A stretch of 31,225 nt of DNA from Candidatus Fraserbacteria bacterium (GCA_037443265.1 JBBIOR010000001.1:85265-116489); one strand, 5' to 3'. Positions 1 through 31,225 are shown, numbered from the stretch's first letter. Program-made: numbers and translations. Notes: generated by a model from the letters alone, not told the origin.

Positions 1-2310
1 GTAGCGCCAGAAGTGCAAGAAGCCTGTGGTGCGCCAGACGTTGATGCCGGCCGTGGGATCCACAGAGCCGGTAAACCCGATGACGACCGCCCCATAGCGG
101 CTCCCCTGTAGGTCCGTCACCAGGGCGTTGAAATCCTGGGCTTGATAGGGGGCCTGAATGCCGATCTGTTTGAAATCGTACTCGATCTGCTGCGACATCG
201 CCTCACGAATGGTGTTGCCGCGGTTGGTCACCAGAGGGAAGCTGATCTCACGCCCTTCCTGGGGCCCGAACCTCGAAGCGCAGTCGGCCTCATCCTGGCA
301 GGCCTTCTGGTTGATGAGGAATCTATCCGTGATGTTGCGCGTGCCGTCCCCATCCGTGTCGGTCAGGCCCAGATCCTCGAGCATCTTCCGGGCCCGCTCT
401 GGATCATAGGGATAGGTCTTGGCGGATTCGGCATCATAGAAGGGCGAGGGGACCGAGATCCAGGCCCACTGGGGCGAGCCTAACCCGTAGTAGATGTTCT
501 CAATCATGGCCTGCTTGTTGATCGCATAGGCCAGCGCTTGGCGGAATTCCTTCGTCCGGGTCACATATTGCAGGGCCCGATAACGGGGATCGGTGGGCGC
601 GAGCTTGGCAATGTCTTGATTGATCACCAGGAACGTGTTGCCATAGGGAGGGCCGCCCTTGAGGGTTCGCCAGCCCTTCTCCGGGGCGCTATTTAGGATC
701 TCGGCCCAGTCCTCCGGGCGAGCAGCGTACATATCGGACTGGCCGCTCTTAAAGTACAGGAACTGCGTGTCGATGTTCTGGACGATGAGCACGGCCAGCT
801 CATCCAGATAGGGCAACTGCACGCCGTCTTCGTCCACACGCCAGTAGTACGGGTTACGCTTAAGCAGCACCTGCTGGCCTGTCTGGTACCCTGCCAGCAC
901 ATAGGGCCCCAAGCCCGCGAACTCCTCGGGCGAGGTGTTGGTGTTCCACGCGTTGTTGAACGCATCGGGCGAGACTCCCGCAAACTGTCCGGCAGAGGCG
1001 GCCTGCGCGGCCCGATCCGCATAAGATTTCGCCCTCTCCAGCGCGTCGCGCAGATCTCCTGCCTCGACGGCCTGGATGAGCCGATCGAGAGCCCCTTTGA
1101 TTTGATCGACCGCGGCCTTTACTTGATCGGCGTCCTTCGCCTCTATAGCCGAAGAGAGCTGCTTGAGTGCCGTATCCAGCAGGGCCAGGGCTTGGGCGTC
1201 GGCCCTCGTAAGATCCTCACGATTGTTATTGATCGTGCTAGAGATTCCCTGAAGATTCCCGCCCGCGCCCGGATTGAGCTTGGCCACGTACTTGGCCAGC
1301 TTGTGCTTGGGCAGGATATTCGCCGAAAGACAATCGCGAATCAGAGGCCGGAAGGGCTCAGTGACGCTGGCTCGGACGGTATAGTCATCGAGCTTCTCAA
1401 CTTGGACGAACTGGCCTCCCACGATGCAGCCGTCGCGCAAGTTGGAGTTGACATCGTCGTTGCCGATGACATCTCGGAAGGTGAAGATGACGTCATCGGC
1501 GGTGAAGGGCGCTCCGTCGGACCACCGGATTCCCTGGCGTAGATAGAACGTGACGCTCTGGCCCTCTGGGGAGACCACCCAGCTCTTGGCTAAGCCGGGG
1601 ATGATCTCAGCGTTTAGGGGATTGATATCGATCAGGCCGGCCGTGCCCTGCATCAAGTTGATGATGTCCGTGGAGCTCGTCTCGGCGGCCGTGGCCGGGT
1701 TGAGCGTCTTCGGACCCGTCCCAAAGGTGGTGACGATCAGCTTTCCACCGGGGATTCCGGCACTCGTGATGCCCTCGGCTTCGGTGATCACCTGAGCGTC
1801 CGGCGGGATGGAGCCAGGCCTCAAGGGTGATGTAACCGGCTCGATGCCATAGAGCGTCTTCTTCCAGTCGAGGATCTCAACGATGTGCCGGTCTTTAGCA
1901 GTGAGCTTCAGCGCAAAATAGAGGCTTTGCTCCTCTTGGGGCTTGAGGGTGACCGTCTGAGAGCCGATGACTTTCCCATCGAGTTTGAGCTCGATGGCCC
2001 TCCCTGAGACGGCCTCCGTGCTTTTCACGCGCACATTGAAGGCCACCGAGCCCCCCACAACTACATAGCCATTCTCCGGGAAGGATTCGACTTGTACGAT
2101 CTTAAGCGGGCTGGCCAGAGAGGTGGTTCCTTGGCCCGTCACCGGGGAGGGCAGTTGAGTTGAAGAGGGCTCTTTCTTGGTCTCCGACGCTGGCTTTTGT
2201 GGCTCTTGAGATGGAATCTGCCTTTGCGCGGTTTGTTGTGGTCCACCGCATCCTGAAAGCACCAGCATGACGCTTACGAGGGCCAGCATCATAAGCGATA
2301 TAGGCCGCAT
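1..2310 (-). CDS. ABC transporter substrate-binding lipoprotein, family 5 (peptide/nickel type), with N-terminal Ig-like domain; 3' end runs off the window
   Basis: Absent from the ORF track because it has no stop in the window. Hand translation from ATG 2310 (GGAGG upstream): MRPISLMMLALVSVMLVLSGC lipobox; GPKTLNPATAAETSSTDI; PGLAKSWVVSPEGQSVTFYLRQGIRWSDGAPFTADDVIFTF (SBP_bac_5 signature); GLGPYVL...LKRNPYYW...LPYLDEL. Confidence 0.9.
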   Translation of the reverse strand, partial: MRPISLMMLALVSVMLVLSGCGGPQQTAQRQIPSQEPQKPASETKKEPSSTQLPSPVTGQGTTSLASPLKIVQVESFPENGYVVVGGSVAFNVRVKSTEAVSGRAIELKLDGKVIGSQTVTLKPQEEQSLYFALKLTAKDRHIVEILDWKKTLYGIEPVTSPLRPGSIPPDAQVITEAEGITSAGIPGGKLIVTTFGTGPKTLNPATAAETSSTDIINLMQGTAGLIDINPLNAEIIPGLAKSWVVSPEGQSVTFYLRQGIRWSDGAPFTADDVIFTFRDVIGNDDVNSNLRDGCIVGGQFVQVEKLDDYTVRASVTEPFRPLIRDCLSANILPKHKLAKYVAKLNPGAGGNLQGISSTINNNREDLTRADAQALALLDTALKQLSSAIEAKDADQVKAAVDQIKGALDRLIQAVEAGDLRDALERAKSYADRAAQAASAGQFAGVSPDAFNNAWNTNTSPEEFAGLGPYVLAGYQTGQQVLLKRNPYYWRVDEDGVQLPYLDELAVLIVQNIDTQFLYFKSGQSDMYAARPEDWAEILNSAPEKGWRTLKGGPPYGNTFLVINQDIAKLAPTDPRYRALQYVTRTKEFRQALAYAINKQAMIENIYYGLGSPQWAWISVPSPFYDAESAKTYPYDPERARKMLEDLGLTDTDGDGTRNITDRFLINQKACQDEADCASRFGPQEGREISFPLVTNRGNTIREAMSQQIEYDFKQIGIQAPYQAQDFNALVTDLQGSRYGAVVIGFTGSVDPTAGINVWRTTGFLHFWRY

Positions 2311-28587: not shown

Positions 28588-29057
28588 TGAGAGTCGGAAT
28601 CGGGCTGGATTTCCATCGCTTTGAGGCAGGACGCAAGCTCATTCTAGGAGGCGTGGAGGTCCCCTACGAGCAGGGCCTCTCGGGCCATTCAGATGCCGAT
28701 GTGCTGGCTCATGCGATCTGTGATGCCCTCTTGGGGGCCGCCGGCTTGGGCGATCTAGGAGCGCACTTTCCGGCGAGTGATCCTCAATACAAAGACATCT
28801 CCAGCTTAAGGCTGCTTAGGCGCGTCAAAGAAATGCTCGATGAGAAAGGGCACGAGATCGAGCACATTGACGCTTCTATCATAGCGGAGGAGCCGCCTCT
28901 GGCCCCTCATTTTGCCCACATGAAAGAGAGACTGGCGCAGGCTTTGGAGATCTCTTCAGAGCAGATCAATCTGAAGGCCACGCGGCCCGAAGGCTTAGGG
29001 GCTTTGGGTCGGGGCGAAGGCATATGGGCCCAAGCGGTGGCCAGCTTGAAGCTTTAA
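28587..29057 (+). CDS. ispF: 2-C-methyl-D-erythritol 2,4-cyclodiphosphate synthase
   Basis: MRVGIGLDFHRF; LILGGV; GHSDADVLAHAICDALLGAAGLGDLG; NLKAT; EGLG. TGATG coupling to fhs. Confidence 0.96.
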   Translation: MRVGIGLDFHRFEAGRKLILGGVEVPYEQGLSGHSDADVLAHAICDALLGAAGLGDLGAHFPASDPQYKDISSLRLLRRVKEMLDEKGHEIEHIDASIIAEEPPLAPHFAHMKERLAQALEISSEQINLKATRPEGLGALGRGEGIWAQAVASLKL

Positions 29058-29758
29058 ACTATGGGGACCAGGAGCTTAAGGGCTAGCATGAAGCCGATGC
29101 CCAGAAGCAACGAGAAGATCACTTTGAAATTGAAGCGCCGATGGGCATCGGGCAAGAGATCGCTCGCCCCAATATACAAAAAATCCCCCGCGATGAAGGC
29201 GAGCGCCATGTGCAGAAAATCCTCGGGGATGAAGGCCGCCAAGAGCGCTCCCCCAGGGTAGAGCGCCCCGGCCAAGCCCAAGGTGAAGAAGATCTTCCCC
29301 TGGCTCCAGCGGGCTTCCTTCATGATCAACGCCGACGTGATGCCCTGCGGGATCTCATGGAGCACCACAGCCAAGGTGATCGCCAGCCCCAAGACGGGAT
29401 TTATAAAATATCCCGTAGCGATTCCCACGCCATCGATGACGTTGTCAAGGGCCATGCCGACCACGGCCACGGGGCCCACCTGATGGGTCTCGCACTCGCT
29501 CTCCCCGCAGGCATGGATCATCATGACCTTCTCCAGCAAATAAAACGTCAAGAATCCCAGGGCCACGTACGCGTAGTCTGCCTCCATCTGGACCTCGGGG
29601 AGGATATCAAAGAACGTGACGGCCAGCAGCACGCCAGCCGCAAACGCGATGATATAGCGGGGTTGGAGGCGCTCGGGTGAGAAGCGGAGCGTAATCCAAC
29701 CCGCAAGGACATCAGAGAGGCCCGCAATCAAGGCATAGAGCAGATAAAGAGATGGCAT
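29054..29758 (-). CDS. ZIP (ZupT-family) divalent metal transporter
   Basis: AFAAGVLLAVTFFDILPE; His/Cys loop HACGESECETH; LDNVIDG; LHEIPQG; FLYIGASDLLP. Confidence 0.9.
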   Translation of the reverse strand: MPSLYLLYALIAGLSDVLAGWITLRFSPERLQPRYIIAFAAGVLLAVTFFDILPEVQMEADYAYVALGFLTFYLLEKVMMIHACGESECETHQVGPVAVVGMALDNVIDGVGIATGYFINPVLGLAITLAVVLHEIPQGITSALIMKEARWSQGKIFFTLGLAGALYPGGALLAAFIPEDFLHMALAFIAGDFLYIGASDLLPDAHRRFNFKVIFSLLLGIGFMLALKLLVPIV

Positions 29759-29764
29759 GCACCC

Positions 29765-29793
29765 AGCTTAGGGAGCGTGTGCATGCTTGTCAA
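29765..29793 (-). promoter_or_regulatory. Leaderless promoter of the ZIP gene
   Basis: TTGACA-17 nt-TAAGCT, with the ATG 6 nt downstream and no SD. Confidence 0.65.
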
Positions 29794-30014
29794 GGGGGAA
29801 AATCTTCCAGGCGGAAGCCTTCGGAGCTCTCCAGCACCTTCTTGATGCGCAGCTCGCTCTCCTCCAGGCGCTTTTTGAGCGCGTCGGCCAGGCGCACGCC
29901 CTCTTCGAAGAGCTTGAGGGACTCCTCCAAAGAGACCCCTTCGGATTCTAGGGATTTGACGATCTGTTCTAGTCTACTGAGGGCCTCTTCTACGCTGAGT
30001 TGGGGTTCGGCCAT
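29790..30014 (-). CDS. xseB: Exodeoxyribonuclease VII small subunit
   Basis: SVEEALSRLEQIVKSLESEGVSLEESLKLFEEGVRL...LEESELRIK. Confidence 0.93.
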   Translation of the reverse strand: MAEPQLSVEEALSRLEQIVKSLESEGVSLEESLKLFEEGVRLADALKKRLEESELRIKKVLESSEGFRLEDFPP

Positions 30015-30141
30015 GGCTCCCTATAGATAGCATACCCAGCTCCTCCCTAGCAAATTTATCTCCTGAGCCTATGCGTGCCGCAGCTAAGATCCCCTTAGGA
30101 ACGTAAGTTTTGTTATTTGCGGGTGTATCGCGGGGGGGGAC

Positions 30142-30170
30142 TTGACAAACGGCCCGAAATGTGCTATAAG
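30142..30170 (+). promoter_or_regulatory. Strong sigma70-type promoter of the small peptide gene
   Basis: TTGACA-17 nt-TATAAG with extended -10 TG; G8 tract just upstream (30132-30139). Confidence 0.7.
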
Positions 30171-30224
30171 TAAAGCAACTCAATCAAATTCTGCTCATTG
30201 GAGCATATAAGGAGGTCATCTAAG

Positions 30225-30380
30225 ATGTTGAAGTGGGGTACACTTGCGGAGTCCAACGAGGCGGCGGAGAGGCTCAATGGGCTGGTCACGAAGATCGTGG
30301 GGAGCAAGACACTCTATGTGCTCCTTGTGCTGGCATCTTTCATGTTGCTCAGCGGAGCATTCGAAAAGTGGGGTGGCTAA
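30225..30380 (+). CDS. 51-aa hydrophobic small protein ending LLSGAFEKWGG (putative signalling peptide precursor)
   Basis: AAGGAGGT SD 8 nt before ATG 30225; own promoter and downstream terminator; K-led hydrophobic stretch TLYVLLVLASFMLLSGA. Confidence 0.75.
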   Translation: MLKWGTLAESNEAAERLNGLVTKIVGSKTLYVLLVLASFMLLSGAFEKWGG

Positions 30381-30426
30381 GCCAAGGGGGTTGGTAGATT
30401 GCCATCCTCATCTTTATCTTTAAAGT

Positions 30427-30470
30427 TAGCAGGAGGAAAGTCAAGATTTGATTTTCCTCCTGCTATTTTT
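30427..30470 (+). terminator. Intrinsic terminator-like hairpin
   Basis: 18-bp stem TAGCAGGAGGAAAGTCAA / TTGATTTTCCTCCTGCTA (one G-U pair), 3-nt loop, followed by TTTTT. Confidence 0.8.
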
Positions 30471-30486
30471 GTAAAGTAAATATCGT

Positions 30487-31225
30487 ATGAGACTTCCGTT
30501 AAGTGCGAAGCTTTACATTATAGCTATTGTTTTAGTGGCATTTTTTGTTATTGCTCAGTTTGCTTCTCATTTCCTCCAACAATTAAGAGATTCCGAATTT
30601 GCCAATGTTGCCCTCATATTCACAGCGCTAGCTCTATTAACCCAAATCTATGAAATAGAGCTCGTCTATAGAAGGATGATCTCAATAGCTGTCGCTATTT
30701 GGGTAGCAACCATACTACTAGGCGGCCCTCTGCTTGCTCTAGCAGTAGCACTAGTTAGCACACTGATTGCAGAGACAATCTTACGCTGGGGAAAGCTTTC
30801 TGAAGGATTTATGGCATTCGTTTGGCCCACCTCTTTCAATATCGGTCAGCTTACCCTTTCCGCCTTCATAGCCTCGCTGGTCTTTGATCTTCTAGGCGGA
30901 CGCCCCTTGATGACTTTGACTAACGCCGCTCAAAGTGGGTTGGCATTCTATAATCAACTCATCCCAGCCGTTGGAGCCTTCGCAGCTTTTGCGCTCACCA
31001 ACAACGCCTTCGTCTCAGGGATCATCACTATGACCCAAAAGACGAGCTTCTTCTATCACTTGAGATTCAACGTGCAGCATCTGCTTTTGCAAATCCTCTC
31101 CCTGGGTGTCCTAGGCATCCTCCTGGCTGTAGTCTACGCCCAGTCGCCCTGGAACCTCTTGCTCGTCTTGATCCCCTTGGGCCTGGTCCATCTGTCACTG
31201 CGCAACTACATGAAACTGCGCCACG
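30487..31225 (+). CDS. Polytopic membrane sensor domain (MASE-like), N-terminal part; output domain, possibly HD-GYP, lies beyond the window
   Basis: Frame is open from ATG 30487 to the edge (246 codons): MRLPLSAKLYIIAIV...ATILLGGPLLA...SFNIGQLTLSAFIASLVFDLLGG...FALTNNAFVS...LLLVLIPLGLVHLSLRNYMKLRH, about 7-8 TM segments. The output-domain identity is inference. Confidence 0.75.
   Translation, partial: MRLPLSAKLYIIAIVLVAFFVIAQFASHFLQQLRDSEFANVALIFTALALLTQIYEIELVYRRMISIAVAIWVATILLGGPLLALAVALVSTLIAETILRWGKLSEGFMAFVWPTSFNIGQLTLSAFIASLVFDLLGGRPLMTLTNAAQSGLAFYNQLIPAVGAFAAFALTNNAFVSGIITMTQKTSFFYHLRFNVQHLLLQILSLGVLGILLAVVYAQSPWNLLLVLIPLGLVHLSLRNYMKLRH

Follow-up and report, generated by a model that had tools for sequence, protein, structure and literature searches.

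A conserved three-gene unit was identified at the end of a 31,225-nucleotide stretch of DNA from a Candidatus Fraserbacteria bacterium (the window). It consists of one or more genes for a small protein with a Lys-Trp (KW) tail, a gene for a MASE9-type membrane sensor with an HD-GYP output domain, and a gene for a DUF5317 membrane protein. Judged from its sequence, the small gene is real and conserved. It is quite possible, if somewhat short of an even chance, that the KW tail acts as the input of the sensor after release by signal peptidase. What is new here is the profile-level link between the peptides of Candidatus Bipolaricaulota and of Gaiellaceae-type loci, together with the control loci, the tail-focused constraint within tandem arrays, and the S-component fold modelled for the sensor domain. 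No such peptide gene came up in full-text literature searches on MASE9, on HD-GYP with small membrane proteins or peptide pheromones, and on Bipolaricaulota c-di-GMP.

The small gene and its surroundings in the window

Positions were counted from the first nucleotide of the window, and all features given are on the plus strand. An original prediction, made from the sequence, had described a near-consensus promoter and strong Shine-Dalgarno sequence driving a 51-aa ORF, followed by an 18-bp terminator and a multi-pass membrane gene, and each of these was read in the window. The promoter (30142–30170; TTGACA at 30142–30147, 17-nt spacer, TATAAG at 30165–30170) agrees with the consensus at 11 of 12 positions and has an extended -10 element (TGC-TATAAG, 30162–30170); it is absent from the automated site listing, the rule of which accepts only T as the last base of the -10 box. 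Boxes of the TTGACA/TATAAx type were found at the same place in most of 13 related loci compared. The ribosome-binding site (AAGGAGG, 30209–30215) lies 9 nt before the ATG at 30225, and AAGGAGG or GAGGAGG precedes every small-gene copy in the related loci and tandem arrays compared. The small gene itself spans 30225–30380 (51 aa; stop TAA at 30378–30380). The ORF listing extends the same frame to 30198–30380, from an upstream TTG; homologues begin at M(L)KWG, and ATG 30225 was therefore taken as the start. Upstream, on the opposite strand, lie genes for the exonuclease VII small subunit and a ZIP transporter.

The product (MLKWG...LLSGAFEKWGG) is composed of an N-terminal MLKWG, a charged linker, about 19 uncharged residues, S-G-A and the tail FEKWGG. 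It had been said to look like a signal peptide, which was borne out for the hydrophobic core, S-G-A and the tail; the N-terminal part did not fit, since 28 residues precede the core and there is no short Lys-containing n-region, so that the ORF is not a textbook signal peptide. No family was found for the product in Pfam or NCBIfam, and a search of the ESM Atlas returned unnamed clusters only, with DUF7503 (0.80) as a candidate lead. A search of 5.8 billion proteins with a profile of 17 small-gene copies gave 88 homologous clusters, none with a name other than 'hypothetical'; where an organism was given, as in a few of them, it was Candidatus Bipolaricaulota/Acetothermia. Pairwise dN/dS was 0.08–0.43 in the 26 pairs that could be compared, one more being saturated; at the level of codon substitution the gene is under purifying selection, the hydrophobic helix of the 45–51-aa protein included. 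The invariant N-terminal Lys uses both of its codons (AAG 91, AAA 19) and the Gly that follows uses four, so conservation acts on the protein.

An intrinsic terminator (30427–30475) separates the small gene from the sensor (hairpin 30427–30465 with 18 pairs, 7 of them G-C, and a 3-nt loop, then a T-run; TTTTTGTAAA). Because shuffled sequence yields 1.9 terminator-like sites for this stretch, the hairpin alone is not significant, and its recurrence in related loci carries the weight: a hairpin and T-run were present between small gene and sensor in 12 of 13. A search of 29700–31225 against Rfam returned only sub-threshold hairpin look-alikes, on the terminator. The sensor ORF begins at 30487 and leaves the window at 31225 after 246 codons, which encode a divergent MASE9-type membrane domain. 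A possible weak sensor promoter (30448–30477; TTGATT, 18 nt, TAAAGT) would lie inside the terminator, 9 nt before an ATG with no ribosome site, at a GC content of 0.34–0.37. At the same place in the loci of genus g10, TTGGAC or CTGGAC and TATAAT, 18 nt apart, overlap the hairpin about 11 nt before the sensor ATG. From the strong promoter and ribosome site, the tandem copies found elsewhere and the terminator before the sensor, an abundant peptide is predicted, and the layout would combine it with a scarce, perhaps leaderless, receptor transcript.

Conservation of the peptide and its linkage to the sensor and DUF5317

The phylum sample comprised 151 Candidatus Bipolaricaulota genomes, 82 with profile matches to the peptide and 118 with matches to the sensor domain. 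Ninety-four of 105 peptide matches were followed within 1.5 kb by a sensor match in the same orientation, and at least 4 of the 11 unlinked matches sit at contig starts. Sensors that had no initial peptide match carried divergent copies of 38–45 aa. When 103 sensor loci were fetched and the peptide profile was iterated over all six frames, 161 copies were recovered among 5,988 ORF segments, all of them upstream and in the orientation of the sensor; the opposite strand gave none. At least one copy (1–6) was present directly upstream and on the same strand in 87 of the 89 sensor loci with at least 300 nt of upstream sequence, one of the 87 being a second tandem paralogue counted via a copy 1.5 kb upstream; the two copy-less loci were one in which the upstream sequence reads as N and one with a divergent sensor. 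For the 72 loci that included 1,500 nt of upstream sequence, the number of copies was 0 (2 loci), 1 (44), 2 (13), 3 (6), 4 (2), 5 (4) or 6 (1), so that 2–6 tandem copies were present in 26, each array copy with its own GAGGAGG or AAGGAGG site; many contigs end inside arrays, and these copy numbers are therefore lower bounds. The three-gene module is nearly universal in Bipolaricaulota, and it is systematically missed because tandem arrays break assemblies and the peptides are left unannotated. Genes flanking the module differ between lineages. An RHH/MshE-type c-di-GMP-binding protein was considered as a core part and rejected, as it adjoins the module only in family f1.

A metagenome scan with the Gaiellaceae-type protein P0222 gave 79 loci, 28 of which included the membrane domain and at least 250 nt of upstream sequence. 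In 26 of these 28 (several near-identical; 21 distinct peptides), the Bipolaricaulota peptide profile matched a same-strand ORF of 27–50 aa immediately before the sensor, as against 0 of 42 control loci in which only the HD-GYP part was matched. A scan with the Peptococcaceae MASE9 protein P0146 confirmed no relative in the metagenomes. The gene for DUF5317 directly followed a sensor in 97 of 132 phylum matches in Bipolaricaulota, and was found after the sensor in 28 of 37 Gaiellaceae-type loci versus 1 of 42 controls. With the peptide upstream and DUF5317 downstream in both phyla, the conserved unit was defined as the peptide gene or genes, the MASE9-type HD-GYP sensor and DUF5317. Searches with DUF5317 gave no match to known families, no PDB sequence match and no Atlas lead. 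Its D147 is invariant and its D165 at least 90% conserved, both in 'GD' contexts; from these Asp residues, a GxGD-type aspartyl protease could be imagined as an idea only.

The original prediction had proposed a search for small ORFs ending in GAxxKW upstream of sensor homologues, and ORFs with a small-x-x-K-W end were found there in both sets of loci above. It had also named sensor homologues lacking ORFs with a conserved tail, or an ORF that is not conserved, as findings that would speak against it; the small ORFs were present, and the ORF was conserved at the protein level.

In 142 distinct Bipolaricaulota copies, conservation was 91–96% for the N-terminal M-K-W, 97% for a K/R just before the hydrophobic segment, 94% for one Leu within that segment and, near the end, 100% for K and 96% for W. 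Upon alignment, the C-terminal K was present in 134 of 134 copies and W in 128, with 1–3 residues after W; 59% of copies end in Pro. Four positions before K, 128 of 135 copies have G, A or S; two positions before it, L, A or I predominate. Three before K stands Glu in 33 of about 135 copies (about a quarter), for which a signal-peptidase cut would need to sit one residue earlier. The median uncharged stretch was 19 residues in 134 distinct Bipolaricaulota copies and 15 in actinobacterial forms; the MKWG start is missing from the latter and from some array copies. Gaiellaceae-type peptides begin with a basic segment, followed by about 15 uncharged residues and A-S-G-A-G; after one further residue come K-W and then H, R or G. 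As read from these alignments, the common core is a hydrophobic segment, small residues and x-x-K-W-x. One face of the helix repeatedly bears small residues (AAxxxxSGA here, GLALG in family f8). In 19 tandem arrays, identity between paralogues rose from 0.69 (linker) through 0.81 (helix) to 0.96 (last 10 columns), and the identical part reaches about 8–10 residues into the helix. The Lys/Arg-rich N-side suggests an N-in, C-out topology. When compared with Sec signal peptides, the small-residue columns fit, the h-region would be about 15 residues (actinobacterial) versus 19 (Bipolaricaulota), and the n-region 20–28 residues.

The sensor: HD-GYP output and membrane domain

The window and contig C1 end at the same position; C1 belongs to a 1.69-Mb genome (44 contigs, 88% complete). 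The end of C1 overlaps the start of reverse-complemented contig C41 by 55 identical nt. C41 carries, in order, the C-terminal 219 residues of the sensor, a second full-length paralogue (443 aa) and the DUF5317 membrane protein. An uninterrupted sensor of 447 aa (P0096) matches the window over its first 246 residues and C41 at its end. Contig extension had been suggested as the way to find the output, predicted to be of cyclic-dinucleotide or kinase type, and it settled on the former: the C-terminal half of the sensor is an HD-GYP domain (HD_5 profile, 141 bits). H301-D302 and H356-E357..W359..G361..G363-Y364-P365 were invariant in 33 sensors, and Foldseek with the HD-GYP part returned 4mcw, 9rbz and 4r8z at E about 1e-9. 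With its motifs intact, the domain is predicted to be active as a c-di-GMP phosphodiesterase. Some HD-GYP proteins act on cGAMP instead of c-di-GMP, and the Foldseek matches of the HD-GYP part also included 5z7c, which we take to be an example of these. The genome carries two GGDEF genes, one with EAL, and only two HD-GYP genes, which are the two sensors; no PilZ match was found in it (88% complete). As the module is near-universal in Bipolaricaulota and accounts for both HD-GYP genes found here, it is probably central to c-di-GMP control in these uncultured bacteria.

The call of a MASE-like domain in the original prediction was broadly right. Against Pfam MASE9 (PF20972), the domain of the window scored 13.7 bits (16.6 in the genome search), below the gathering cut-off of 24.3; 14 of 33 members of the sensor family matched MASE9 at E<=0.01 (best 4.5e-5). 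A sensor-domain profile (A2) retrieved 759 representative clusters at E<=1e-3 among 1.84 billion proteins. Ninety-five of 150 listed clusters were scanned; the 13 nearest were left out, as were 26 of less than about 320 aa and 16 at the tail of the list. Of these remoter clusters, 47 of 95 matched Pfam MASE9 at E<=3e-5 (best 2.1e-13); the outputs in the scanned set were HD-GYP (73), histidine kinase (12) and GGDEF (11), and its named members were from Chloroflexota, Peptococcaceae, Thermomicrobiales, Armatimonadota and Gaiellaceae. MASE9 scores were 24.6 bits for P0222 and 45.6 bits for P0146. By this profile link, the domain of the window is homologous to recognised MASE9 proteins though itself below the cut-off. 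A profile search of genome contigs with the sensor domain gave 16 loci, all labelled Bipolaricaulota/Acetothermia or mislabelled relatives.

AF2 models reached pLDDT 86.8 for the whole sensor and, for the domain alone, pLDDT 83.7 and pTM 0.81, with seven long helices and short ones at 101–106, 141–155 and 188–197. MASE9 has been described with eight predicted membrane segments, two of which form a short intramembrane hairpin (bioRxiv 10.1101/2021.11.05.467447). The membrane domain is modelled as a six- or seven-helix ECF-transporter S-component fold; Foldseek returned the same S-component families at probability 0.97–0.98, but with E 0.23. The domain of the window gave no S-component Pfam match, and its relative P0140 scored 17.4 bits against ECF-ribofla_trS (riboflavin S-component; cut-off 26.7). 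Seven long helices and a cytoplasmic HD-GYP would place the N-terminus of the sensor outside, as in NikM/CbiM, although the preprint predicts eight segments. The likeness in fold to S-components that bind vitamins or metals suggests where the sensor pocket lies, and residues 56–72 would occupy the position of the S-component lid loop over that pocket.

Proposed action of the tail, alternatives and known systems

In the mechanism proposed here, the small gene would yield an abundant membrane-targeted mini-protein with its N-terminus kept in the cytoplasm, the hydrophobic segment of which would carry the C-terminal tail (small residues, x-x-Lys-Trp-x) to the outer face of the membrane. There the tail would be the cognate extracytoplasmic input of the neighbouring sensor, received by the seven-helix, S-component-like MASE9-type domain fused to HD-GYP; the tail, the most constrained element of the module, is predicted to lie on the side of the membrane to which the pocket opens. 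As the sensor would be a phosphodiesterase, the amount of peptide would set the breakdown of c-di-GMP. It is slightly more likely that signal peptidase cuts after the conserved small residues (here after LSG or LSGA) than that the tail stays anchored; the cut would release a Lys-Trp peptide of 6–7 residues as a self-made, possibly population-level signal, and DUF5317 may be a helper in the pathway. We infer the topology, the cleavage and the binding, and likewise whether the enzyme is stimulated or inhibited. Cleavage is plausible given the small-residue columns and the short uncharged stretch (15) of actinobacterial forms. Several features argue against release: the 19-residue uncharged stretch of Bipolaricaulota is long enough for a stable anchor, the 20–28 conserved residues with invariant MKW ahead of the helix are odd for a signal peptide, a 4–7-residue product would be very short, and identity within arrays extends further into the helix than a released hexapeptide requires. 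Covariation was calculated for 84 peptide-sensor pairs; the top pairs joined tail positions to sensor residues 56–72, and significant support was not obtained. In a depth-consistency analysis the top 20 pairs had a mean |dz| of 0.61 versus 0.85 +/- 0.15, a value as low being seen in 8.6% of circular-shift controls, and larger sets were null. Because relatedness confounds covariation, it was left unused. The sub-threshold MASE9 score of the domain of the window also counts against the proposed mechanism.

Alternatively, the mini-protein might stay uncut, as a single-pass, tail-anchored subunit or modulator on the membrane domain of the sensor with the Lys-Trp tail over an outward pocket. The length of the uncharged stretch in the 134 Bipolaricaulota copies, a cytoplasmic N-terminal part conserved (M-K-W 91–96%) and selected at the amino-acid level, the small residues on one helix face, and the within-array identity that reaches into the helix all speak for such a subunit. 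It would, however, have to be reconciled with the shorter uncharged stretch (about 15 residues) of the actinobacterial homologues, which lack a conserved N-terminal part, with a helix that varies freely between phyla where K-W does not, and with predicted strong expression and up to 6 copies per sensor gene, far above a 1:1 need. Covariation gave no significant signal for a subunit either, and the analogue CbiN, which acts with the S-component CbiM and has a loop that lies over the CbiM pocket, has two helices and that loop rather than one helix (PMC7689651). We regard an uncut subunit as rather unlikely, though a serious contender.

The mini-protein might also share a pathway with the sensor and DUF5317 and not be the ligand of the sensor at all: it could serve DUF5317 as substrate or partner, or be an abundant constituent of the membrane, the level or insertion state of which c-di-GMP controls or which is merely monitored. 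DUF5317 is the third conserved gene (97/132; 28/37 versus 1/42 controls), gene order indicates functional linkage and not a binding partner, and a high copy number suits a structural or bulk role. Yet the small ORF always lies directly before the sensor, not before DUF5317, and a bulk membrane component would not readily account for constraint that is strongest in a tail of 5–7 residues; as DUF5317 is without a recognisable relative, this account yields no specific prediction yet, and we consider it improbable. Least of all do we expect the small ORF to be mainly a cis-acting leader, in which a ribosome at the Lys-Trp codons near the stop would decide on the terminator and hence on transcription of the sensor; the chance of this is very small. 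The terminator between the two genes in 12/13 loci would suit a leader, as would invariant residues 1–3 codons before the stop and the 59% of copies with a final Pro, termination after a C-terminal Pro being slow. Against this, the stem begins anywhere from about 13 to 73 nt after the stop, with no conserved alternative hairpin visible in the 13 loci, there is no terminator in high-GC arrays and actinobacterial loci, tandem copies each have their own strong ribosome site, the whole 45–51-aa protein including the hydrophobic helix is under purifying selection, and the sensor seems to have its own promoter.

In a broader form of the ligand proposal, ribosomally made Lys-Trp mini-peptides would be the native ligands of MASE9, MASE9 would be an ECF S-component turned receptor, and with DUF5317 they would form a peptide-to-c-di-GMP module in Bipolaricaulota and Thermoleophilia-type Actinobacteriota. 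We hold this generalisation as possible and on the doubtful side. Were it true, a c-di-GMP enzyme would for the first time be seen to take a peptide as its direct input, and MASE9 would gain its first assigned ligand. What c-di-GMP enzymes detect through MASE domains embedded in the membrane has long been a gap in knowledge. The paper in which MASE9 was defined goes no further than to suggest binding within the membrane and names no MASE9 ligand, and its main text does not contain the terms 'upstream', 'small protein', 'ECF', 'S-component' or 'energy-coupling' (bioRxiv 10.1101/2021.11.05.467447). With a candidate ligand encoded beside its presumed receptor in two phyla, and an invariant core of two residues that can be synthesised or mutated, the matter can be taken to the bench.

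The MASE9-HD-GYP phosphodiesterases T. maritima TM1467 and S. venezuelae HdgA likewise have a polytopic N-terminal sensor domain fused to HD-GYP; an hdgAB promoter is mentioned in a Streptomyces preprint. The promiscuity of output domains described for MASE9 (bioRxiv 10.1101/2021.11.05.467447, Galperin and Chou) was matched by the relatives of the domain of the window. Compared with described MASE9 proteins, the domain of the window falls below the Pfam cut-off, and the upstream KW-peptide gene and DUF5317 are additions.

MgrB and SafA are small membrane-protein modulators of PhoQ encoded by single-copy genes, and we know of no modulator of the MgrB, SafA or CbiN kind that pairs with MASE9 or HD-GYP. 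Like MgrB and SafA, the mini-protein is under 60 aa with a single hydrophobic segment and could act on a polytopic sensor or S-component-like domain; unlike MgrB, SafA and CbiN, which are single-copy genes, it is often encoded in tandem arrays, and CbiN has a second helix. An Agr-type autoinducing peptide system was rejected, as the 51-aa product has no Cys, the output is HD-GYP and no AgrB homologue was found, DUF5317 being the one further membrane gene conserved in the module. The parallel to agrD/agrC drawn in the original prediction holds in part: a small precursor gene beside that of a polytopic membrane receptor, with abundant precursor and scarce receptor, is common to both, whereas here there is no Cys, no AgrB and no histidine-kinase receptor, and the conserved part is the extreme C-terminus. 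The Phr peptides of B. subtilis are Sec-exported linear pheromones made from 40–50-aa precursors, the active part being the last few residues; the phr gene adjoins its receptor gene, and the peptides are re-imported to bind cytoplasmic receptors. As with Phr, the precursor here would be nearly all export signal and its gene lies beside that of the candidate receptor; unlike in the Phr case, the protein proposed to receive the peptide has a membrane domain and a c-di-GMP output, and the precursor carries a long, conserved N-terminal part. In the Rpf/DSF system, the fatty-acid signal DSF is sensed by a separate kinase, RpfC, and c-di-GMP is lowered via the HD-GYP regulator RpfG. The proposed system would resemble it in having a self-made extracellular signal that lowers c-di-GMP through an HD-GYP enzyme, and would differ in that sensing and hydrolysis lie in one protein and the signal is ribosomally made.

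Sensor start and upstream genes

GC content was 0.34-0.37 at window positions 30400-30700, compared with 0.55-0.60 in the surroundings; this interval spans the terminator as well as the sensor gene's first 200 nt. The sensor ATG was not preceded by a ribosome site and lay 9 nt past a -10-like box; because of these two features of the sequence, the sensor transcript may be leaderless. Upstream of the module, genes for a ZIP-family metal transporter and the exonuclease VII small subunit occupied 29054-30014 on the (-) strand, opposite to the module. Since the genes flanking the module were not the same in other lineages, these two were placed outside it.

Peptide arrays at contig ends and variant copies

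Among metagenome-assembled genomes, very many contigs stopped just 5' of the sensor, in or beside the peptide array (sensor loci L061, L064, L072, L074, L080, L098, L104, L105, L108, L110, L118, L127, L128, L131, L132, L135, L141, and others). Assemblies were apparently broken by the near-identical tandem peptide copies, and peptide arrays are therefore under-counted and often lost. Peptide copies reading partly N (X in translation) were excluded from alignments (loci L065, L101, L109, L111, L114, L125, L126, L129, L139 and L145), and L109 was scored as having no copy because its sequence reads N at that place. Variant tails were found in the lineage of L096 (genome G014, contig C32), where copies ended in AAASFKLG, with Leu replacing the otherwise near-invariant Trp; three peptide copies ended in KF and one in KC.

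DUF5317, a c-di-GMP-binding-motif ORF and tandem sensors

On contig C41, where the sensor is completed (locus L016), the DUF5317 gene was located at 1346-1897 (-). In the DUF5317 alignment (A7), two Asp residues 18 positions apart were kept, both in GD contexts (FLGD147, invariant; SxGD165, at least 90%), as was an ANGGxMP motif. A sequence search of DUF5317 against solved structures returned no match. The same locus carried a 147-aa ORF (909-1352, (+)). An MshE-related motif for c-di-GMP binding was matched in it at 51.4 bits (NF053729; cut-off, 38), and a ribbon-helix-helix match was weak, at 15.1 bits, under the cut-off. The ORF product is possibly a c-di-GMP-responsive regulator. Its family was present in 119/151 genomes and adjoined the sensor in one lineage family only (f1).

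Between the sensor and the DUF5317 gene lay a second full-length sensor paralogue of 443 aa (L016 1904-3235, (-)), which did not have a peptide gene of its own. The tandem sensor pair was also present in genome G001. An 'hdgAB' promoter is named in a Streptomyces preprint, and this mention suggests that HD-GYP genes occur in tandem in Streptomyces as well.
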